This document shows positions 4,701 to 21,012 of a DNA stretch of 64,000 bases, piece by piece. Each line of letters begins with the position of its first letter. The stretch's first letter is position 1. Origin of the DNA: Lysobacterales bacterium. GTDB lineage: Bacteria > Pseudomonadota > Gammaproteobacteria > Xanthomonadales > Rhodanobacteraceae. The DNA is taken from contig JBBRBU010000014.1 in NCBI GenBank assembly GCA_038205505.1, positions 8,067 to 72,066 on the forward strand. Reading direction: 5' to 3'. A model generated the notes under the pieces. That model did no database searches and was not told where the DNA came from. It saw only the letters and a list, made by a program, of their open reading frames with translations. The translations under genes were made by a program, and so were the position numbers.

Positions 4701-4822
4701 CGAGGAGTTCTGCATAGTCTGGCTTCCCTCGTGAATCCGGATCTGGCGAGCGACCCATGACTGTTCATCGCAACGACTACCCGATTCCGCGTCCGAACAG
4801 AGTCGACTGGATCGTCGGCCGC

Positions 4823-5494
4823 ATGAAGGTTCTCATCGTCGAAGACGAGCGCGACATCGCGGCGAATATCTGGGACTTCCTCGAACGTCGCGGCCATGTT
4901 GTCGATCATGTGGTCGATGGCAAGCAAGGGCTTGCCCGCGCCATGAACGGAAGCTTCGACATCATCATCCTCGACCTCGGTTTGCCGCGTCTCGACGGAC
5001 TGGAGCTATGCCGGCGCCTGCGAGATGCGGGCAATGGCGTTCCTGTGCTGATGTTGACCGCGCGCGATACGCTGGAGGATTGTCTGAGCGGATTCGAGCA
5101 TGGAGCGGACGACTATCTGGTCAAGCCGTTCGCCTTGCGCGAGCTCGAAGCCCGCATCCGCGTCCTCCACCGCAAGGGTTCGCCGCCAGAAGATGCGTTG
5201 CTCAAGCTCGGAGAGTTGAGTTATTCGCCAACCTCGATGTTGGCGCAGCGTGCCGGACAATCGATTCCGCTGACGGTTGCCCAGGGTCGCATCCTGAGCC
5301 TGCTGATCCGCGAATCGCCGAACGTGATCCGTCGTGAGAGCTTGCGGGTGTCGGTCTGGGGAGAGGAGGGCGGCACCATGGCGGCCCTGCATACGCATGT
5401 TTGCACGCTGCGCGCATTGATCGATCGTCCGTTTTCCAAAGTCATGCTGCAGACCGTGCACGGCATCGACTATCGGCTGGTGGATCCGGAGTGA
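4823..5494 (+). CDS. OmpR/PhoB-family response regulator
   Basis: MKVLIVEDE...IIILDLGLP...MLTARD...DYLVKPF receiver domain plus winged-helix C-terminus. The start may be 4757. Confidence 0.9.
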   Translation: MKVLIVEDERDIAANIWDFLERRGHVVDHVVDGKQGLARAMNGSFDIIILDLGLPRLDGLELCRRLRDAGNGVPVLMLTARDTLEDCLSGFEHGADDYLVKPFALRELEARIRVLHRKGSPPEDALLKLGELSYSPTSMLAQRAGQSIPLTVAQGRILSLLIRESPNVIRRESLRVSVWGEEGGTMAALHTHVCTLRALIDRPFSKVMLQTVHGIDYRLVDPE

Positions 5495-6717
5495 CACAGC
5501 GATCAGTCTCGCTACGCTGGCGCGTGACCCTGGCATTTGGTCTGCTCGGCCTGGTCCTCAGCGGTCTCTTCGCCGGTGCCACGACCTTCATCACCGAACA
5601 CTACGAAGAGCTACTCGTGGACCGCATGCTTGAAAGCTTCTCTGCCGATCTCTTCGCACGTCATTCGAGTACTTCAACTCGCACATTGGCTCTGCCGACA
5701 TCACACACCTTGCAGGGTTACCTGCAGCATGCCGATGGGAGCGGAGCAGTCCCCGAAGCCTATGCCTCCTTGCCACTCGGCATGCATGAGGTCGACCTCG
5801 GTGAAGACCAGGACTTCCGCGTCGGGGTTTTCAATCTGGATGGTGACCGTCTGTACCTCGCCATGAATCTCGCCGACGTCGAACCGCTCGAGACCTACCT
5901 CGAACAAATCCTTGCCGCCATCGTCGTGTTTGGCACGCTGATCGCTTCATGGCTCGGCTGGCTCTTCGCGGGTCGCACGATCGCCCCGGTACGTCGACTT
6001 GCCGAAGCGGTCGAAGCGCTGCCGTCGTACGCGCAGCCAACGCAACTCGCCTTGCACGTGGCCAATGACGAGCTCGGCCGACTGGCCAAGGCCATCGATA
6101 GCTACCAACAGCGACTCATGCAGGCCGATGAGCGCGAGCGAGCATTTTTTGCTGATGCGAGTCACGAGTTGCGCACGCCACTGGCGGTCATCCGCGGAAC
6201 GGCCGAGCTGTTGCTCGACGATGACCAGCTCGAGAATCAGCCACGCTCCCGTCTCGAGCGCCTTGATCGTGGCGTGCAGACGCTCGCCGACCTTCTGGAA
6301 GCGCTGCTCTTGCTGGCCCGTGGCACGAAGAGTCCGCCCGAGTCCGTCGATGTTGTCAGCTGGCTCTCCGAGACCCTGCCGGAGATCAATGCCGCCGGCA
6401 GGCTGGAAGTCCACCGCATGCCGGACACGGGGCCGCTGCTCCTGCGCCCACGCGAGGCCAGCCTTGTCGTTCGTGGCATCGTGCGCCGACTTGATCGCAG
6501 CCTGGAGTTGGCGACGATCCGGGTTGAAGTTCACAGCAAAGAATTGATTCTCGGCATACCCCGCGATTCGACCGTGACGGGCGATTCCGGCCATGCCCAG
6601 GAATCCGGCGACCGCAGACTTGGTGTCACCCTGATCGGCCGCCTGGCTGCGCAGATGGATTGGGTCATTGATGAAAACCAGTCAGCAGCCGGACGCATCT
6701 CGATCCGGCTGTCTTGA
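5491..6717 (+). CDS. Sensor histidine kinase (2 TM, HAMP, HisKA) with an apparently degenerate ATPase domain
   Basis: GTGA overlap with the regulator stop. H-box FFADASHELRTPL is present; N/D/F/G boxes are not recognisable. Confidence 0.8.
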   Translation: MTQRSVSLRWRVTLAFGLLGLVLSGLFAGATTFITEHYEELLVDRMLESFSADLFARHSSTSTRTLALPTSHTLQGYLQHADGSGAVPEAYASLPLGMHEVDLGEDQDFRVGVFNLDGDRLYLAMNLADVEPLETYLEQILAAIVVFGTLIASWLGWLFAGRTIAPVRRLAEAVEALPSYAQPTQLALHVANDELGRLAKAIDSYQQRLMQADERERAFFADASHELRTPLAVIRGTAELLLDDDQLENQPRSRLERLDRGVQTLADLLEALLLLARGTKSPPESVDVVSWLSETLPEINAAGRLEVHRMPDTGPLLLRPREASLVVRGIVRRLDRSLELATIRVEVHSKELILGIPRDSTVTGDSGHAQESGDRRLGVTLIGRLAAQMDWVIDENQSAAGRISIRLS

Positions 6718-8835: not shown

Positions 8836-9333
8836 GTGCGAAAACCGCTCACCAACCGTGGATTTCCCTCCGAATGCACAGAGCGTCTGTTGCCCGGGGC
8901 CTGGATTCCCACCCCTCGGGTTGAGGAACATCCCGCATTGGTGCATCCTGCCCGGGTGTCGCTTAGAAACCTCCAGCGCCGAATCATCGCGCGGGTCAAC
9001 TGTCCCCTGGGACAGCTGGCAAGCTTGATCCTGTGCCTGTCGTTGGCGGGCGCTGGAATGCCGACAGCGTCGGTGCATGCGCACGCGAACGGCGATCAAC
9101 AGCATGACCATGCCGTTCATGTGAGCGTTGCCGACCATTCCGATCATGCAACGGGAGGCGATGCCGAAGACATTCTGCATCTGCATGATGTTGGCCTTTC
9201 ATTGGCAACGCTGCCTTCGTTTCCCGAGTCCGTGATCGATGCGTTGGCGCCAGTTTCCCCGGTTTTCGGCGGCGTGATTCCTGCGCCACCCGATGCATAC
9301 CGTTCGCGCCTTCATCGACCTCCCATCGCCTGA
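8836..9333 (+). CDS. CzcI/CopL-like His-rich exported leader protein ending RPPIA (start uncertain, 8836-8956)
   Basis: Hydrophobic signal-like segment, His-rich middle (HAHANGDQQHDHAVH), Pro-rich tail and C-terminal RPPIA. Lies directly upstream of czcC. Confidence 0.7.
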   Translation: MRKPLTNRGFPSECTERLLPGAWIPTPRVEEHPALVHPARVSLRNLQRRIIARVNCPLGQLASLILCLSLAGAGMPTASVHAHANGDQQHDHAVHVSVADHSDHATGGDAEDILHLHDVGLSLATLPSFPESVIDALAPVSPVFGGVIPAPPDAYRSRLHRPPIA

Positions 9334-9390
9334 CAAACGCGGCCGCTGTCCTGCGGCCTGACCAGCTTTGTCTTTCGATAACCCGGAGGT
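9318..9390 (+). promoter_or_regulatory. Predicted mRNA hairpin sequestering the czcC Shine-Dalgarno
   Basis: acctcc (9318-9323, inside the R-P-P codons) pairs with ggaggt (9385-9390). Inner stems: atcg/cgat, gacaaa/tttgtc, ggccgc/gcggcc. Confidence 0.6.
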
Positions 9391-9395
9391 TTTCC

Positions 9396-10642
9396 GTGAA
9401 TTTGCGTTTCTTGTTGATCCTGGCCTTGGCCGGGATCGGCGCTGTCGTCCCGAAAGGACACGCCGCCGAACTCTTGCGCCTTGAAGAGGCGGTTGCCCGC
9501 GCTCTGGCCAAAAATCCAACGCTTGCTGCTGAAGATTCCTTGCTGCAAGCCACTCGAATGCGCGCCGAACGTGGGGCATTGTCGCCGCCCTATGTAATCG
9601 GCGCTGAAGTGGAGAATGTCGCAGGTAGCGGCGCGCTGAGTGGTGTCAGCGGCGCAGAAACGACCCTGCGCATTGGTCGAGTCATCGAACTGGGAGGCAA
9701 GCGCACTGCCCGCCTGGCCCTCGGCGACGCGGAGGTCCGACAACGGCAAATCCTTGCCGAATCCGCTCGAATTGAACTTGCCAGCCGCACCACGCTCCGC
9801 TTCATCGAGGTGCTCGCCGATCAGCAACGCCTGGAGTACGCAAACGAGCGTGTAGAACAAGCCGGGCTCACCCGGAACGAAATTGCGGCGTGGGTAAAGG
9901 CCGCGCGAAACCCTGAATCGGACCTCTTCGCCGCGGAAATAGTCGTCGCGGAGGCGGAGCTGGATCGCGAGCATGCCGAGCACGAGTTGGCGAGCGCGCG
10001 GAGTACATTGGCAGCCAGTTGGGGTGCATTCGCGCCGGACTTCCAGGCGGTCGCCGGGGACCTGAAATCACTACCCGCTATCGATTCGTTCGAGAAGCTG
10101 GCGGAGCGCCTGCCGATGAGCGCAGAGCAACGAGCCTCGCTTCTGCAGGCCGAAACCATTTCCGCCGAACGCAGAGTCGCGGTTGCGAGCGCCAAGCCGG
10201 ATATTTCACTCAGCCTTGGCGTGCGTCGATCGGAAGCTCTTGATGATCAGGCACTCGTTTTGTCGCTGTCATTGCCCTTGGGCAGCAGGTCGCGAGCGGC
10301 GTACTCGGTGTCCGAGGCCGACGCGCGACTAGCAGCACTGGAGGCGCAACGCGATGCTCGCCACTTCGAGCTCCATCAAGCGCTGTTCGAGAAATATCAG
10401 GAGCTCAATCACGCTCGATTTGAAACCGAATCCCTGACTGCGCGGCTTGTACCCAAGGCGGAACAAGCCCTCGATTTCACTCGGCGCGGATTCAACGCCG
10501 GCAGATTCTCCTTCTATTCGCTCGCCCAGGCGCAAAAGACCTTGTTCGACCTGCGCGGCCGAGAAGTCGAAGCTGCCGCCCGCTATCACACCCTGCTGGT
10601 CGAGGTCGAACGCCTCACCGCTGTCGCCACGGAAACCACGCC

Positions 10643-10646
<4 letters not shown>
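9396..10646 (+). CDS. czcC: TolC-family outer-membrane factor of heavy-metal RND efflux
   Basis: Signal peptide and OEP-like sequence (FNAGRFSFYSLAQAQ). First gene of the C-B-A triplet; GTG start with SD ggagg. Confidence 0.85.
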
Positions 10647-15041
<4,395 letters not shown>

Positions 15042-15126: not shown

Positions 15127-15582
15127 CTAGCGGTTCGCTTTTTCGAGATCCTTGATCAGAGCTTTCATCTCACCAATCTCGCGGACTTGCGCCTCGATGA
15201 TTGCGTCAGCCAGCTTGCGCACGCGCGGGTCCGAGATGTGCGCGCGTCCGCTCGTCAAAATGGCAATCGAGTGATGCGGGATCATGGCCTTCATGTAGGA
15301 AACATCGTCCACCGTTTGCTGGCTGCGTACCAGCCAGAGTGAGCCGGCAAAAACGAGCACGCTGCCAAGCAGGATGCCCGCGTTGAGGCGCTTGTTGTCA
15401 TACATGCCGAGCATGAACAGCAACATGACGATGGCCATTGTCGCTCCCATCACAAGCGCCATGTAGGCACGTGTCTCGCTGAAAAAGATGTGATCGAGCG
15501 CGTAAGTATTGAGGTACATGAGACCGAACATCACGAGCGTCGATGTGGCAATCATGGCGCTGAATTTCAGATACTTTGACAT
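15127..15582 (-). CDS. DUF305-domain membrane protein (CopM-like four-helix metal-binding fold)
   Basis: YMKAMIPHHSIAI and IIEAQVREIGEMK motifs. SD ggagg upstream. Confidence 0.8.
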   Translation of the reverse strand: MSKYLKFSAMIATSTLVMFGLMYLNTYALDHIFFSETRAYMALVMGATMAIVMLLFMLGMYDNKRLNAGILLGSVLVFAGSLWLVRSQQTVDDVSYMKAMIPHHSIAILTSGRAHISDPRVRKLADAIIEAQVREIGEMKALIKDLEKANR

Positions 15583-15745
15583 CAAGGTTCCTCCCGGGAT
15601 TGCGTTGGCGAACGTCTTTGCGAGGCGGCCGACCACTTCATGCGGCCCTTCATCATGCCGATCGCGCCTGACTCTGCGATGAGCCTGGCCTTGCAGGCGA
15701 TTGGCATCCAGTGAACATTGAAACGAATGGGAGGGCTATCGATCG

Positions 15746-15774
15746 CCTCGCGGGCAGAAAACGTGCCCGCGAGG
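15746..15774. terminator. GC-rich hairpin (11-bp perfect stem), possible terminator or processing site
   Basis: cctcgcgggca-gaaaacg-tgcccgcgagg. No clear U-tract. Confidence 0.4.
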
Positions 15775-15823
15775 GAGGCCGTACTTTCCAGCTCGCGTCA
15801 TGCGTCCAGCGCGATAGCTTCGC

Positions 15824-16357
15824 TCAGGACTTCGGGCGAGACGACCAGTGAATGTGGACGATCTTCCAGCTTTCACCGACCTGCTTGAGGATCATCGTTT
15901 CCGTGCTGCGCAAGGTGGCAGGCTTGCCATCCTTCTGATAATGGATCTCGCTCTCGCTGCCAATCCAGACCAGGTCACCGCTACGCTTGGCGGTACGGCG
16001 GAGCAGCTGCACATGCGCGTCTTTCAGGAACTTCGCGTCGCTGCTCGCGTGATGAGACAAATACTCCTTCCGGCTGCGCTCGGCGCCGCCACTTTCGAGG
16101 ATCAGCACGTCGGCATCGAGCAGCGACTCGACGGCTTTCAGATCACCGGCCTTGAGCGCTGTGCCGAGCCGATCGGCCACGCTGACGGCTGCCTGCACTT
16201 GCACTGACATTTCCGGCGATGCGGCCGTATCCGCAGCCGCAGCATCGTGCGTGTGGCTGTGCGATGTCGACTTGGGTGTTTCTTCTGCGCCAGCGACTGC
16301 GCAACCCAGAAGCAAGGCGGCGAGAAACGGTGTGGCGCGGGAATAAAGCGTGCTCAT
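15824..16357 (-). CDS. Exported NTF2-like (DUF4440-type) protein with a short His-rich N-terminus
   Basis: Signal peptide, HSHTHD, and C-terminal WKIVHIHWSS typical of NTF2-like folds. Part of the cop cluster. Confidence 0.75.
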   Translation of the reverse strand: MSTLYSRATPFLAALLLGCAVAGAEETPKSTSHSHTHDAAAADTAASPEMSVQVQAAVSVADRLGTALKAGDLKAVESLLDADVLILESGGAERSRKEYLSHHASSDAKFLKDAHVQLLRRTAKRSGDLVWIGSESEIHYQKDGKPATLRSTETMILKQVGESWKIVHIHWSSRPKS

Positions 16358-16373
16358 GATCGGTTTTCCTTTC

Positions 16374-17225
16374 TCAATGATCGTGCTGGGGATGGTCGTT
16401 GGCCGGATCGACCGGCTTGATTGGATGTCGCTCTACCGTTCCGTCGGCATGACGATGGGATTTCATTTTCACCTCGCCCGCCTTGTCCGAATCGACGGCC
16501 GCGTCGCCTGCGTGCTCGCGGGTCTCCGAATCGGAATGCGCGCTACCGCTCTCGCCTGAAGTTTCCCCCTCCGCGGAATGCTGATGCCCGACATGCTCGT
16601 CAGCGGTGGCCGCATGATGATCGTCGACTTGTCGAGCCGCGTTGTCATGGAGCTCTTCGCTTTCCGAGTGGGAATTTTCATGCTCTCCGCTTTCACCGCC
16701 GCCGTGGGAATGGCCGCTGCTGTTCGCAACCATTGCCCGGTACTGCGCGGCATCCAGCGTCGGCAACTTCTGCAGAAATGCGGCCATGTTCCAGATGTAG
16801 TCATCAGCCATGCTCTTGCCCCAGGCCGGCATGCCGGAGGCCTTGATGCCGTGCTTGATGACCCAGAACGCTTGCGCCGGCTCGACCTTTTGCGTGGAGA
16901 GATTCGGTGGTGCCGGATACAAACCCTTGCTCAACTCCGTTTCGACCATGCCTGGCGACAGGTGGCAACCGGTGCACATTGCGCTGTAGTTGCCGGCCCC
17001 CTGGGTGATTCTTGCGGGATCGGAAAGGTCTGGAACATCAAGCTTGCCTGCACGCGTTTCGATCGAGCGTTCACGCAAGGTTTCGAGGATGGCGTGAGTG
17101 GCTCGGTAGTGCGGATCATCTGCGCCGATGTTGTAGAGGCCCGACCAGACAAAGGCCCCCGCTGCCAATGCTAGAACAACCAGAGCGACGACGAAGCCGG
17201 TAGTTTTTCCTGTATTCGATTTCAT
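16374..17225 (-). CDS. c-type cytochrome with a long His-rich C-terminal tail
   Basis: Haem motif CTGCH, LYPAPPNL and WVIKHGIKASGMPAW. Tail is rich in His/Glu/Ser. Confidence 0.85.
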   Translation of the reverse strand: MKSNTGKTTGFVVALVVLALAAGAFVWSGLYNIGADDPHYRATHAILETLRERSIETRAGKLDVPDLSDPARITQGAGNYSAMCTGCHLSPGMVETELSKGLYPAPPNLSTQKVEPAQAFWVIKHGIKASGMPAWGKSMADDYIWNMAAFLQKLPTLDAAQYRAMVANSSGHSHGGGESGEHENSHSESEELHDNAARQVDDHHAATADEHVGHQHSAEGETSGESGSAHSDSETREHAGDAAVDSDKAGEVKMKSHRHADGTVERHPIKPVDPANDHPQHDH

Positions 17226-17240
17226 GAGTTGTTCCTTGAG

Positions 17241-18377
17241 CTAAAACCACATGCGCACGCCAGCAACAAGCTGGGTGTCATTGACCTGTCCGAAATCAGC
17301 GCGCGCGTAGTCTGCGGTCTTTCCGAACTTGCGTGACCAGACAACGCCGACGTAGGGCGCAAACTTCCGGGTCACTTCGTATCGAAGGCGCAATGCCAGT
17401 TCGATATCGGAAAAACCAGCTCCGATTCCGCGTGCAGGATCGTCTTTGCCGTAGAAGTTCATCTCTACGTCGGGCTGCAGCACCAAGCGTTGGGTCAGCA
17501 AGAGCTCGTACTCGGCCTCCAGCCGAAAAGCCGTTCTACCTTGCTCACCAACATAGGCCGTGGCATCAACTTCAAACCAGTAGGGTGCCAAACCCTGCAT
17601 GCCAATCGCAGCCCAGTTTCTGGATGGGCCACTTCCGCTGTCGTGACGGGCACCGGATTGAAGGTTCCAGTACGCAGAAATGGCCTTGCTCCACAACAGC
17701 TCCATGCGCATTGTCTCCAATCGCCCGTCGCTGCGTTCGCCTTCCAGCTTGAACCAGATCTTGTTCAAGTCCGATCCAACCCAGGCCTGAGCATTGAGGG
17801 ATTGTCCATTTTCATCGTCGCCGGTGAACTGCTCGAGCTGGTCGATCAGCACGCTGCCGAGTCTGGAATGGCCATGCATTCCGTCCATCCCGATCATGGG
17901 TCCGGAGCTGACCCCATCGGAATAGTCCGGGTTGCGCGCGTCCGCAGGTGCTGATCCACCCTGCATGTCCATGTCGCCATGATCCATGCCCTCCATCTTG
18001 CTGTGATCCATGCCTTCCATCTTGCTGTGGTCCATGCCTTCCATCTGGCTGTGATCCATGCCCTCCATCTGGCTGTGATCCATGCCCTTCATCTTGCTGT
18101 GGTCCATGCCTTCCTTCGGCTTTTGGGCACCGGACTTGGCCTTCATGGCTGGGGTTTCGGATTTCGCCGGTTCGAGTTTTTCACCTGTTGTTTCTTGATG
18201 TATCTCTGGAGGCGTGTGCGCGTGATGCTCGCTCGCCGCGTTCACATCCTCAGCCGGAGATTCTGGCGTCTGTGCCAGAGTGATCAGTGGCCAACCAAGC
18301 GCCATGGCGAATAGCGTCCGCAGCATCCAGCCGGCGGGATTGGAACGATTTGATTGAACGCAATTGATGGTGCTCAT
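17241..18377 (-). CDS. copB: Copper resistance outer-membrane protein CopB
   Basis: ATGA overlap with the copA stop, MDHSxM repeats, GLAPYWFEVD, RLRYEVTRKFAPYVG and terminal WF. Confidence 0.92.
   Translation of the reverse strand: MSTINCVQSNRSNPAGWMLRTLFAMALGWPLITLAQTPESPAEDVNAASEHHAHTPPEIHQETTGEKLEPAKSETPAMKAKSGAQKPKEGMDHSKMKGMDHSQMEGMDHSQMEGMDHSKMEGMDHSKMEGMDHGDMDMQGGSAPADARNPDYSDGVSSGPMIGMDGMHGHSRLGSVLIDQLEQFTGDDENGQSLNAQAWVGSDLNKIWFKLEGERSDGRLETMRMELLWSKAISAYWNLQSGARHDSGSGPSRNWAAIGMQGLAPYWFEVDATAYVGEQGRTAFRLEAEYELLLTQRLVLQPDVEMNFYGKDDPARGIGAGFSDIELALRLRYEVTRKFAPYVGVVWSRKFGKTADYARADFGQVNDTQLVAGVRMWF
17980..18113 (-). repeat. 24-bp coding tandem repeat (GMDHS[K/Q]M[E/K]) inside copB
   Basis: About 5-6 copies of gatccatgcc(c/t)tccatct(t/g)gctgt. 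Confidence 0.9.
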
Positions 18378-20134
18378 GACACCACCACCTGGCGCATCAT
18401 CCCGGCTTCCATGTGGTACAGCAGATGGCAGTGATAGGCCCAACGTCCGACGGCATCTGCGCTGACCCGATAGCTGATGCGTTGCGCAGGCTGCACCATG
18501 ACCGTGTGCTTTCGAACCAGGAAATCTCCATCAGGAGTTTCCAGTTCGCTCCACATTCCGTGCAGATGGACTGGATGCGGCATCATCGTGTCATTCGAAA
18601 GCACAACGCGAAGACATTCACCCAATCGAAAGTGAATGGGTTTGGCGTCGCTGAACGTCGTGCCGTCCATCGACCACATGTAGCGTTCCATGTTGCCGGT
18701 CAGATGCAGCTCTATCTCGCGACCAGGTTCGCGTGGATCGATGGATCCGCCGATCGTATGCAGATCGGCATACGTGAGTACCTTGCGACCGTTGTTGCGC
18801 AGACCGATGCCGGGATCGTCGAGATTGGTTCGGGGCGTGTCGACGCGCATGTCGACACCGGGTCCGTACTCGGTTCGTGCATGGCGGACTGCCGCGGTTC
18901 CCGCCATGTCGCCGTGGTTCGACCCGTGCTGCATTCCGACCATGCCGTCGCTACCGTGCTGCATGCCGGCACCCATGGCCATGGCGCCCATCATGTCGGT
19001 CATGCTCAACCACTGCGGTGGATCGACAGCAGGCACATCGGCCTGCATGCCGGCCCGCGGAGCGAGCGTGCCGCGCACGAATCCGGTGCGATCGATCGAC
19101 TGGGCAAACACCGTGTAGGCTTGTTCATCGCTCGGCTCTACGATCACGTCATAGGTCTCCGCAACGGCGATGCGGAACTCGTCCACGCTGACCGGCTCGA
19201 CATCCTGGCCGTCGGCCGCGACCACGGTCATTTTCAGGCCCGGAATACGGACGTCGAAAATGCTCATCGCCGAGCCATTGATGAAGCGCAGGCGCACTTT
19301 CTCGCCACGCTTGAACAGCCCGGTCCAGTTGTCACCTGCGCTGGCGCCATTCATCAGGTAGGTATAGGTATGCGCGGTGACATCGCCGAGATCGGCTGGG
19401 CTCATGCGCATCTGGTTCCACATCTTGCGTTTTGCCAGGGCCTGACGAAACCCCATTTTCAATGCATCGTTGGCGAAATCGACCGCGGTCGGCTCATTGA
19501 AGTTGTAGTAGTCGCCCATTTTCTTCAGATTGGCGAACAATACTTCCGGATCTTCGTCGGTCCAGTCCGACAGCAGCACGACGTGATCCTGCTGGGTCGG
19601 AAAGCGCTCGCCGTTTTTTGGCGAGATCACGATCGGGCCGTACAGGCCGGTCTGTTCCTGGAAGCGCGAGTGGCTGTGATACCAGTAGGTCCCGCTCTGA
19701 TTGACAGCGAACTGGTACTCGAACGTCTCGCCTGGAGCGATGCCGTCGAAGCTCAGGCCCGGCACGCCGTCCATGCCGGTAGGCAACAGGATTCCGTGCC
19801 AGTGGATCGAGGTCGGTACGCGCAATCGATTGGTCACGCGCAAGGTGACTGTATCGCCCTCGCGCCAGTGAAGTGTCGGCGCGGGCACCGATCCGTTGAC
19901 CGTGGTTGCAGAACTCCGGGCTCCGGTGATGCCAGACGCGGTTTCGCCGATAGTCAGGTCAAATTGTGTGCCGGACAAGGTGTTGGCCTTGCCGGACGGA
20001 TCGCGCGCCCAGGCCATTGGATGCCGAAGCCCGAGGGTGGCGATCGCGCCCCCAGCGAGAAGGCCTTGCAGGAATCGTCGTCGGGATGCCGTCATCGGCA
20101 GGACGACAGGGAAATCAGAAAAACGGGAAGTCAT
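18374..20134 (-). CDS. copA: Copper resistance multicopper oxidase CopA
   Basis: Tat motif SRRRFLQG and Cu ligands HWHG, WYHSH, HPVHLH, HCHLLYH. Confidence 0.95.
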   Translation of the reverse strand: MTSRFSDFPVVLPMTASRRRFLQGLLAGGAIATLGLRHPMAWARDPSGKANTLSGTQFDLTIGETASGITGARSSATTVNGSVPAPTLHWREGDTVTLRVTNRLRVPTSIHWHGILLPTGMDGVPGLSFDGIAPGETFEYQFAVNQSGTYWYHSHSRFQEQTGLYGPIVISPKNGERFPTQQDHVVLLSDWTDEDPEVLFANLKKMGDYYNFNEPTAVDFANDALKMGFRQALAKRKMWNQMRMSPADLGDVTAHTYTYLMNGASAGDNWTGLFKRGEKVRLRFINGSAMSIFDVRIPGLKMTVVAADGQDVEPVSVDEFRIAVAETYDVIVEPSDEQAYTVFAQSIDRTGFVRGTLAPRAGMQADVPAVDPPQWLSMTDMMGAMAMGAGMQHGSDGMVGMQHGSNHGDMAGTAAVRHARTEYGPGVDMRVDTPRTNLDDPGIGLRNNGRKVLTYADLHTIGGSIDPREPGREIELHLTGNMERYMWSMDGTTFSDAKPIHFRLGECLRVVLSNDTMMPHPVHLHGMWSELETPDGDFLVRKHTVMVQPAQRISYRVSADAVGRWAYHCHLLYHMEAGMMRQVVVS

Positions 20135-20257
20135 GGTTATCACCACTCAGTGTCGAAGGATCGACTGCACGTCGCGTGCAGGCAATGACGGCATCTCGAG
20201 CCTCGCGAGAACGCGAGTCGAGTGCAATCGGTGGTGCCCGAAAGCACCAGCAGACAC

Positions 20258-20686
20258 TCAAGCGATAGGAGGGCGACTCAGATGCGGCAGGATCGGCGCT
20301 GGAAGTCCGGCTGCGACCGGACGATCCCTCGATTCACCCATTTCAGCAACGCCGAACCAGGCAAATGACGGCAAGGTTGCCGCCGCATGAACGCAGGCAC
20401 AGTTGCAGTGGGCCGACTTGCAGCAGTCGGGCGCGAGATCTTGAGAAGACGTCGCAGACACGTCCTTCGCCTGCGCGAGAGCTTCGCTCGCTTGGGACTC
20501 ATCTAATGATGGTGGTTCGTGGCATGCAGGCTTTGCCGGGGTATGCGATTCAACGTTTAACGCGCGGGAGTGCATATCAGCGGGATTGTGGGCGCCGGCC
20601 GAAAAGGCGGCCATGGCGAGCGGTGACCCATTCAGGATCACCCCAAGCGCCAACACTACCCGTAGCAGAATTGATCTGAACATCAT
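20258..20686 (-). CDS. copL: CopL-family leader/metal-binding regulatory protein ending RPPIA
   Basis: Signal-like N-terminus, Cys/His cluster DCCKSAHCNCACVH and Pro-rich end PAPILPHLSRPPIA. Sits immediately upstream of copA. Confidence 0.85.
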   Translation of the reverse strand: MMFRSILLRVVLALGVILNGSPLAMAAFSAGAHNPADMHSRALNVESHTPAKPACHEPPSLDESQASEALAQAKDVSATSSQDLAPDCCKSAHCNCACVHAAATLPSFAWFGVAEMGESRDRPVAAGLPAPILPHLSRPPIA

Positions 20687-21012
20687 GTTTCTACAATACA
20701 CCGGTCAGATGGGGATTCAATCGATGGCAGCAGATCCAACATGCCCGCTCGGCGCATCGTTTTCATTCGATCAATGATTGACCCTGGCGCCAGGCATAGG
20801 TTCATTCCCGTCGACTTGACCTGAACACACAATTTCACGCGGGTCGGGTATGCAGGAACGCTGGCCAGGATGCCGGGAACCGTGGTCGGACGCTGCGCGG
20901 CAGAACAAGGGCTGCCGGCTCGTCGGCACTCGCTCGTCCCGGACTGGCTCGCAACCTTGACCGAGCTGCCCTGCGATCAAGCCCGTCGCCAGCTTCAGTT
21001 ATTATTCCCGCC

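Follow-up and report, generated by a model that had tools for sequence, protein, structure and literature searches.

The subject of this study is a small histidine-rich open reading frame (ORF), hereafter the czc leader, which lies directly ahead of a czcCBA-type metal efflux operon in Lysobacterales bacterium (assembly GCA_038205505.1). The stretch analyzed, referred to as the window, comprises 64,000 nucleotides (nt) of contig JBBRBU010000014.1 (positions 8,067 to 72,066 of the forward strand), and all coordinates are those of the window. When the ORFs were read, the stop codon of the leader was followed by 62 nt, a GTG-initiated outer-membrane factor gene (czcC), an adaptor gene (czcB) and a resistance-nodulation-division (RND) pump gene (czcA). 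An earlier note on this DNA had described an ORF in frame with position 8836 that ends RLHRPPIA-stop, and this ending was read from the sequence as CGA-CCT-CCC-ATC-GCC-TGA at 9316-9333. The signal-like segment (LASLILCLSLAGAGMPTASVHA) and the histidine cluster described there were both found in the leader ORF. The parts of the leader are listed below.

8956-9333, plus strand: leader ORF of 125 amino acids with GTG start and TGA stop, consisting of signal peptide, His motifs, spacer and RPPIA-stop; start placed by conservation.
8956-9081, plus strand: predicted Sec signal peptide, residues 1-42, from sequence inspection.
9076-9147, plus strand: first His cluster, H41-A-H43-x6-H50-D-H52 followed by H55, H61 and H64; family consensus HAHADGDxxHDH.
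9175-9189, plus strand: second His motif, L74-H75-L-H77-D78, 44 residues ahead of Arg121; family consensus LHxHD.
9316-9333, plus strand: arrest-like C-terminus, R121-P-P-I-A125-stop, encoded by CGA CCT CCC ATC GCC TGA.

By eye, the signal peptide was divided into an n-region with R4, R8, R9 and R13 and an h-region (LASLILCLSLAGAG), with probable cleavage between VHA and HA. The mature leader contains no Cys. In an AlphaFold2 (AF2) model built on a 7-sequence alignment, helices were predicted at residues 3-14 and 17-32, in the signal-peptide part only, and the mature leader was predicted to be unstructured (predicted local distance difference test, pLDDT, below 50). As weak evidence, this predicted disorder would fit a peptide without an independent fold.

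Start codon and putative promoter of the leader

The start at 8836 assumed in the earlier note is probably wrong. The extension 8836-8955 is not conserved as protein, and at about 30 loci the ATG or GTG with which the homologues begin stands about 40 codons ahead of the first HxH, which points to GTG 8956 in the window. GTG 8956 is thus probably the true start, giving the product of 125 amino acids. The in-frame "LRH" and "VE" conservation upstream was also considered in favor of 8836 and rejected, since GTA, GTC or CTC, none of them a start codon, stands there in some cases and the region is better read as a promoter. Such a promoter would account for the spurious "LRH"/"VE" amino-acid conservation in over-extended database proteins.

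8921-8949, plus strand: putative sigma-70-type promoter of the leader, with -35 TTGAGG at 8921-8926, a 17-nt spacer and -10 CATCCT at 8944-8949.

The -10 element ends 6 nt ahead of the start codon GTG 8956. At about 20 homologous loci, a CAT[ACGT]CT hexamer precedes the start by 6-8 nt, and TTGnnn lies another 17 nt ahead of it. No Shine-Dalgarno (SD) sequence was found ahead of the leader start, and a consensus promoter scanner made no call at 8921-8949. From this arrangement we infer that the leader mRNA may be leaderless, with GUG or AUG at its 5' end.

Conservation of the leader protein

An exhaustive HMMER search of 1.8 billion protein cluster representatives was adopted to collect relatives of the leader, and 41 were found, all ending RPPI[AV]. 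Whole-genome searches, from which most homologous loci came, detected the gene in 35 of the 401 order genomes covered, compared with 5 of 400 at the level of the class. The named hosts were Lysobacter arseniciresistens, Thermomonas fusca and metagenome-assembled genomes (MAGs) of Xanthomonas and Lysobacterales. Overall identity to the relatives was 27-42%, except for one relative at 84%. The family shares a basic and then hydrophobic N-terminus, the motif HAHxxGDxxHxH, the motif LHxHD and the ending [H/Y]-R-P-P-I-[A/V]-stop. Seven residues (H41, H43, H77, R121, P122, P123 and I124) were invariant in 36 sequences, in which H50, H52 and H75 were conserved in at least 90%. In most loci the downstream gene encodes an RND outer-membrane factor and lies 61-76 nt away. 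The window leader had no match in Pfam or NCBIfam. As judged from these alignments, the leader belongs to an unannotated Lysobacterales family, and the family is real and under selection at the protein level.

Counted from the second His in the last HxH, the Arg of the ending lay 44 residues away in 52 and 43 in 9 of the 63 non-redundant sequences that fall within a range of 42-45 residues, while the measured distance in 3 other sequences was much larger. The spacer between HxH and RPP is itself poorly conserved in sequence and rich in Pro, Ala and Ser. The fixed spacing of 43-44 residues is the most telling sign of selection on the peptide and suggests a molecular ruler.

Predicted RNA helix over the czcC Shine-Dalgarno sequence

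It had been claimed in the earlier note that acctcc at 9318-9323, within the codons of the ending, is exactly complementary to the czcC SD ggaggt at 9385-9390, and this was confirmed; the SD lies 6 nt before the czcC GTG at 9396. The RNAfold check proposed with that claim was run on 9300-9410 and on 9250-9450, and in both cases the pairings noted earlier were those of the minimum free energy structure and of the centroid. The pairs were 9317-9323 with 9385-9391, atcg 9325-9328 with cgat 9376-9379, gacaaa 9332-9337 with tttgtc 9367-9372, and ggccgc 9341-9346 with gcggcc 9353-9358. The fold energy was -39.3 kcal/mol, compared to -27.6 +/- 3.2 kcal/mol in 200 dinucleotide shuffles (z = -3.64), none of which was as stable. 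The predicted elements are as follows.

9317-9328, plus strand: 5' arm of the outer helix, anti-SD gaCCUCC together with AUCG, inside the R-P-P-I-A codons.
9376-9391, plus strand: 3' arm of the outer helix, CGAU at 9376-9379, a 5-nt internal loop and the czcC SD GGAGG at 9385-9389 with UU, according to the folds.
9332-9372, plus strand: middle helix (9332-9340 with 9365-9372), which includes the last two bases of the stop codon, around the inner hairpin (9341-9346 with 9353-9358).

In the partition function of the window, the probability (P) that the SD is paired with the leader end was 1.00. In partition-function folds of each locus, the SD paired with the last 18 nt of the leader at P of at least 0.79 in 23 of 32 loci. 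For comparison, 1.6% of 307 gene pairs reached P of at least 0.8 (median P 0.001) in a crude background made up of same-strand gene pairs with 40-100 nt spacers from the window's own genome. Across the loci the same three tiers were seen, namely the outer helix, the middle helix at the stop codon and the GC-rich inner hairpin. The inner hairpin is GC-rich but variable in sequence and is present in nearly all of the homologous 61-76 nt spacers, and nearly every member of the family has, immediately 5' of the SD, a GAU element with complementarity to AUC, the Ile codon. A UGCGUG-like tract after the inner hairpin (9359-9375 in the window, and also in homologous spacers) pairs with ACGC-like bases past the stop codon to give the middle helix. 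Loci that use CCA for the first Pro have GAUGGGAG as the SD, and the pairing moves to CCC-AUC; in locus L027, CUCCCAUCG pairs perfectly with CGAUGGGAG. A search of Rfam gave no known RNA family at this structure.

Selection on the codons and on the peptide

Duplex, permutation and synonymous-recoding tests were used in place of alignment-based covariation. In 33 non-redundant loci, the Arg of the motif was encoded by CGA in 21, compared with 17% elsewhere in the same leaders (binomial 4e-9), and the first Pro by CCU in 24, compared with 13% elsewhere (binomial 6e-15). Genome-wide, CCU accounts for 9.7% of the first-Pro codons in Pro-Pro, and CGA-CCU-CCN encodes 2 of 108 RPP tripeptides. The mean energy of the duplex between leader end and SD was -14.5 kcal/mol for the native sequences, compared to -11.5 kcal/mol for synonymous recodings (Wilcoxon 1e-5) and -13.4 kcal/mol for mismatched loci (permutation p = 0.006). 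The SD segment bound the last 21 nt of the leader at -14.5 kcal/mol and other 21-nt windows of the same leader at -9.8 kcal/mol. These comparisons supported the view that the rare codons CGA-CCU are under selection on the RNA. Selection of rare codons for slow decoding alone was considered and found unlikely, since the second Pro is always the common CCG or CCC and the CCA loci shift the pairing to the GAUGGGAG SD.

The peptide is also kept for its own sake. R-P-P was retained in 9 loci where the first Pro codon is not CCU (CCG, CCA or CCC) and in 12 loci where Arg is encoded by CGC, a codon unable to pair; its retention where the pairing is lost suggested that both the peptide and the RNA are under selection. 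In a class-level relative (L009), RPPIA-stop is encoded with CGA CCG CCC, a run without complementarity to the SD, and an anti-SD (CAUCUCCA) stands right after the stop codon and pairs perfectly with UGGAGAUG. This arrangement indicated that the peptide motif and the anti-SD can be uncoupled.

The downstream operon and its neighbors

The genes of the operon were assigned by profile matches.

9396-10646, plus strand: czcC-like outer-membrane factor, 416 amino acids, GTG start; Pfam OEP at 6.6e-25.
10643-11881, plus strand: czcB-like periplasmic adaptor; Pfam HlyD_D23.
11892-15041, plus strand: czcA-like heavy-metal efflux RND (HME-RND) pump, 1049 amino acids; NCBIfam TIGR00914, CusA/CzcA family, 1567 bits.

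The top NCBIfam match of the czcC product was IhpA, a divalent metal ion exporter subunit, and the czcB product matched IhpB, also a divalent metal ion exporter subunit, and the CzcB/NccB family, each match being under the curated cut-off. The pump bears both marks of the CzcA type, namely membership of the CusA/CzcA family and the motif DFG-x3-DGA-x3-VEN in transmembrane segment 4, which Nies reportedly described in 2003 as the mark of divalent-cation HME-RND pumps. Given the His/Asp ligands of the leader and the type of the pump, the metals sensed would be Zn, Co, Cd or Ni.

A copper/metal island on the opposite strand adjoins the czc operon (15127-20701, minus strand). Its members include a DUF305 protein, a SnoaL-like protein, a multicopper oxidase and CopL, as well as the two genes below. 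An OmpR-type response regulator and a histidine kinase are encoded at 4757-6717 on the plus strand.

16374-17225, minus strand: His-rich cytochrome-c-like protein of the metal island.
17241-18443, minus strand: Met/His-repeat CopB-like protein of the metal island.

Other leaders ending in RPPI

A second leader with this ending was found within the metal island.

20258-20701, minus strand: CopL-like Cys-rich leader (DCCKSAHCNCACVH) ending RPPIA-stop, encoded by CGC CCT CCT ATC GCT; no Pfam match.
18374-20146, minus strand: copA-like multicopper oxidase downstream of the CopL-like leader.

CopL of Xanthomonas-type copLAB clusters is a labelled node in the network of CutF-like proteins (PMC9973294). 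The CopL-like leader shares with the czc leader the RPPIA-stop ending, the CCU codon for the first Pro, an ATLPSF-like segment and its position before a metal-resistance gene. It differs in being Cys-rich, in preceding a multicopper oxidase and in its spacer of about 110 nt. Comparison of CopL with the His family of the czc leader by hhalign gave a weak probability of 22% across the last 41 residues. Two further Cys-rich leader ends were observed on contig C66 of the same genome, with the stop ending at 9881 (plus strand) and at 13511 (along the reverse complement); they read YRPPIA-stop and NRPPIS-stop, and the first Pro is CCT in both. Together with the czc leader and the CopL-like leader, four RPPI-ending leaders are thus present in the genome.

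Similar endings were observed in other genomes. In a Xanthomonas MAG and in Thermomonas fusca (L014 and L015), a Cys-rich leader on the minus strand ending LLRPPIG-stop adjoins the His-rich czc leader, and its CGA CCT CCG pairs with the SD of the gene 104 nt downstream (P = 0.98). Distant His/Cys leaders of other Lysobacterales (L040-L047) contain LLHFAHCC and LFHAGHHCxH and end FRPPIS[AV]-stop, FRPPIAG-stop, LRPPIAA-stop, FRPPIRA-stop or FRPPIT-stop; in several of them a CCUCC(G)AU stretch complements the SD of the gene that follows. RPPI appears, from these sequences, to be an order-wide ending of CutF-like leaders.

Comparison with known leaders

CutF of Rhodobacter capsulatus, encoded in cutFOG, is the published precedent for a leader switch (PMC9973294; bioRxiv 10.1101/2025.02.05.636593). 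Öztürk et al. (mBio 2023) described CutF-like leaders as consisting of a signal peptide, a metal motif, a C-terminal Pro motif and a short spacer, and reported OEP genes annotated CusC/CzcC/SilC as their commonest downstream neighbors (PMC9973294). The czc leader fits the operational rules of Öztürk et al. for CutF-like leaders, with 125 amino acids, Pro-Pro at residues 122-123 and czcC 62 nt downstream, and a CutF-type stem-loop shielding the downstream SD is present in the predicted folds. Both leaders are small (<150 amino acids) and carry a metal-ligand motif; CutF is exported by Sec, and a Sec signal peptide is predicted by eye for the czc leader. Both have Pro-Pro two residues before the stop codon (PPPRL-stop in CutF, PPIA-stop in the czc leader) and a short spacer with a stem shielding the SD of the next gene, and both head a metal-detoxification operon. 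The predicted disorder of the mature czc leader fits the finding that CutF was undetectable in vivo (PMC9973294).

The two differ in their ligands, which are CxxxC in CutF and His/Asp only in the czc leader (HAHxxGDxxHxH and LHxHD), and in the arrest-like motif, which is PPP in CutF and R-P-P-I here. The anti-SD of CutF (CTTC) stands in an intergenic stem-loop, whereas that of the czc leader lies within the putative arrest codons. The target of CutF is a multicopper oxidase and that of the czc leader a divalent-cation-type HME-RND pump, and the czc leader, unlike CutF, may be translated from a leaderless mRNA. Some CutF-like clusters are His-only, adjoin HupE/UreJ and are probably not copper-specific (PMC9973294); the czc leader differs from these in lying beside an OEP gene.

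CruR (Bp2923) of Bordetella pertussis, assigned to Pfam DUF2946 (PF11162), is a copper-responsive exported upstream ORF (PMC9426467) for which arrest has been shown (PMC12992588). The spacing between its CXXC and RAPP is 45 residues, is kept within 1-2 residues in >2000 proteins and is needed for regulation (PMC9426467). The czc leader is likewise an upstream ORF, predicted to be exported, that heads a metal operon and holds a metal motif at a set distance from a C-terminal Arg/Pro-Pro; the 43-44 residues of its family fall within the 45 +/- 2 residues between metal motif and Arg/Pro that apply to DUF2946/CruR. In place of the CXXC and RAPP of CruR, the czc leader has HxH(D) in the equivalent position and RPP, with two residues after Pro-Pro instead of three. 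For RAPP, B. pertussis uses frequent codons, whereas in the family of the czc leader the rare CGA-CCU is under selection. CruR acts by Rho-dependent termination over a 162-nt spacer and switches an importer off with copper, whereas the 62-nt spacer of the czc leader sequesters the SD of an exporter. At E <= 10, the window leader gave no match to DUF2946 (PF11162), whose gathering score is 23.7 bits, and by this Pfam threshold the family falls outside DUF2946, although some relatives resemble the profile weakly along its full length (E = 0.01-0.02).

With SecM, ApdA and ApdP, the czc leader shares the opening of an SD-hiding helix by C-terminal arrest near Pro-Pro in an exported leader, if it arrests as proposed. 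Those leaders sense export activity, whereas the czc leader is proposed to sense metal, and their RAGP/RAPP has Arg at -3 from the A-site Pro, compared with -2 in the czc leader. CzcI of Cupriavidus metallidurans (czcNICBA) is also a small gene product encoded directly before czcC and a proposed metal-sensing regulator (as cited in PMC9973294). It is a CutF-like protein without a C-terminal proline motif (PMC9973294), whereas the czc leader ends RPPIA. When the window leader was searched by tblastn against 72,556 plasmids, nothing was found at E <= 1e-3; the presence of pMOL30 in that collection was not checked.

Proposed switch and rival explanations

Taken together, it is fairly probable that ORF 8956-9333 is a CutF-type, cis-acting, co-translationally exported leader that gates the translation of czcC, and through czcC the gating probably extends to the whole czcCBA operon. 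The RNA gate and the architecture of the leader are well supported by the sequence comparisons, and regulated arrest is plausible. As long as no ribosome occupies this part of the mRNA, a single long imperfect hairpin that starts at the Arg121 codon and reaches the SD would keep the czcC ribosome-binding site closed. The leader would be exported while being translated, and the translating ribosome would melt the 5' arm. If the ribosome paused with Pro122 and Pro123 in the P and A sites, respectively, its footprint would cover about 9305-9334 and span the whole anti-SD arm and the stop codon. The inner hairpin would stay free, as would the SD, which lies 50 nt downstream, so that a 30S subunit could then load on czcC. 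When the footprint of the stalled ribosome was masked in computed folds, the median cost of opening the ribosome-binding site fell from 12.6 to 6.5 kcal/mol, and in the window from 12.0 to 5.9 kcal/mol. At RPP, the first His cluster would be about 70-80 residues from the peptidyl-transferase center and already beyond the translocon, and LHxHD, 44 residues back, would be just past the ribosomal exit. Once the His/Asp ligands hold a divalent metal of the periplasm, be it Zn, Co, Cd or Ni, this would probably hinder the pulling of the chain and lengthen the Pro-Pro pause, and a longer pause would give more pump synthesis, as with copper and CutF. This CutF-like logic, with a longer pause and higher expression in the presence of metal, was preferred because the operon encodes an exporter; the CruR-like logic, in which metal releases the pause, is less likely for an exporter.

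The earlier note had proposed a nascent-chain sensor, and the comparative data support it in the conserved His-rich leader with predicted export, the invariant RPP, the helix hiding the SD and the selection on codons. Its comparison with RAPP-like C-termini needs a correction, as RPP is strictly speaking no RAPP motif: the czc leader reads H-R-P-P, with Arg directly before the first Pro and thus one position closer to the prolines, and RPP differs from the RAPP/RGPP arrest motif. This difference and several other points weigh against a regulated switch of this kind. Plain X-P-P pauses are normally relieved by elongation factor P. Pairing between leader end and SD was weak or missing in 9 of the 32 loci, and when the 5' arm was masked, weak alternative pairings were predicted to keep the SD about 65% paired. 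In the covariation check called for earlier, the outer helix was recovered and found conserved, but covariation was modest. RNAalifold returned no consensus structure on a MAFFT alignment of 28 spacers, in which the SD register and the inner hairpins were misaligned; on a subset of 9 sequences the outer helix did emerge, with invariant pairs and hence no formal covariation, which is limited because both arms of the helix are nearly invariant. The AF2 model, with its 7 aligned sequences only, is weak evidence, and 11 of 40 relatives matched DUF2946 below threshold (best E = 0.01, 16 bits, profile positions 5-112 of 117). Finally, any translating or terminating ribosome would open the helix, and constitutive coupling fits the RNA data equally well.

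Constitutive coupling is the core of the main rival, in which the leader would be a functional periplasmic metal-binding protein, such as a CzcI-like accessory protein or chaperone, with RPPIA serving the mature protein, for instance as a docking tail, and with no regulated pause; the helix would do no more than tie the translation of czcC to that of the leader. Any ribosome passing or terminating at 9316-9333 would melt the anti-SD arm, His-rich periplasmic metal binders are common, and CzcI of Cupriavidus, encoded upstream of czcC, has no Pro motif (PMC9973294). This explanation accounts for the RNA data, but neither for the ruler nor for the shared RPPI tail: the distance from HxH to RPP is held at 43-44 residues across a poorly conserved spacer, R-P-P-I is invariant and ends at a constant two residues before the stop codon, and the same RPPI ending is found on otherwise dissimilar Cys-rich leaders before other metal genes. 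The mature part is, moreover, predicted to be disordered. Fixed spacing, invariant RPPI and disorder are hallmarks of CruR and CutF and unlike a folded accessory protein, and the rival was judged unlikely, if still worth serious attention.

Control of the CruR type at the level of transcription was considered improbable. In that case the paused ribosome would protect the transcript, and after its release Rho or an attenuator formed by the inner hairpin would terminate transcription before czcC. CruR operates in this way (PMC9426467), and the family conserves a GC-rich inner hairpin with a U/G-rich tract behind it (9341-9375 in the window). The spacer is, however, 61-76 nt long compared with 162 nt in CruR and almost all paired, leaving little unstructured C-rich RNA for Rho; no U-run follows the inner hairpin; and SD sequestration is the conserved long-range feature. 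An intrinsic terminator in the spacer was rejected as a candidate, since the only call of the scanner between the leader and czcC was a weak hairpin over the SD itself. It is more doubtful still, to the point of being very nearly dismissed, that the ORF is untranslated and its open frame incidental to a structured 5' untranslated region acting as a metal-sensing or protein-bound RNA. The strong structure (z = -3.6) and the lack of a Pfam or NCBIfam family for the window protein could be read in that way, but every locus keeps the frame open at a similar length, and Rfam gave no match. Conservation is, moreover, of the protein type: at identities of 27-42%, His, Arg and Pro stay invariant while their codons vary synonymously, and a signal-peptide pattern is retained.

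Implications

The concept of a leader switch is already published, and its spread to CzcC-type neighbors has been predicted bioinformatically (PMC9973294). The statement of the earlier note that no such mechanism was known for a CzcCBA pump holds experimentally but not conceptually, as Öztürk et al. (2023) had tied CutF-like leaders to CzcC-type genes. What appears new is a His-only RPPI family on divalent-cation RND operons, with putative arrest codons that are also the anti-SD and with selected rare codons; the leaderless leader mRNA is possibly new. Arrest codons doubling as anti-SD and a leaderless leader mRNA both appear undescribed for CutF or CruR. We tentatively suggest, as a possibility that stops short of being probable, that the czc leader is the first non-copper member of the DUF2946/CutF group, in which a His/Asp nascent chain would report periplasmic Zn, Co, Cd or Ni and set the translation of a CzcCBA-type pump, with R-P-P-I codons as the anti-SD, a leaderless mRNA, and RPPI plus CCUCC as a rule for the CutF-like leaders of Lysobacterales.

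If the proposed switch is true, the footprint of the paused ribosome, and not downstream helicase action, would unmask the SD, and four codons would be under dual selection for peptide and RNA. The family makes a notably clean test system, with a leader of 125 codons, a 62-nt spacer, a 44-residue ruler and four codons separable by synonymous recoding. On this view, the small ORFs of this family before RND operons, unrecognized by Pfam and NCBIfam, deserve annotation as regulatory leaders.

The prevailing view is that heavy-metal RND pumps are regulated chiefly by two-component systems and by MerR or ArsR regulators. If the proposal is true, a nascent exported leader that reads periplasmic metal directly would give Zn/Co/Cd resistance an additional, rapid level of post-transcriptional control, and the principle of CutF and CruR would reach beyond copper and Cys ligands to include divalent metals and His ligands.

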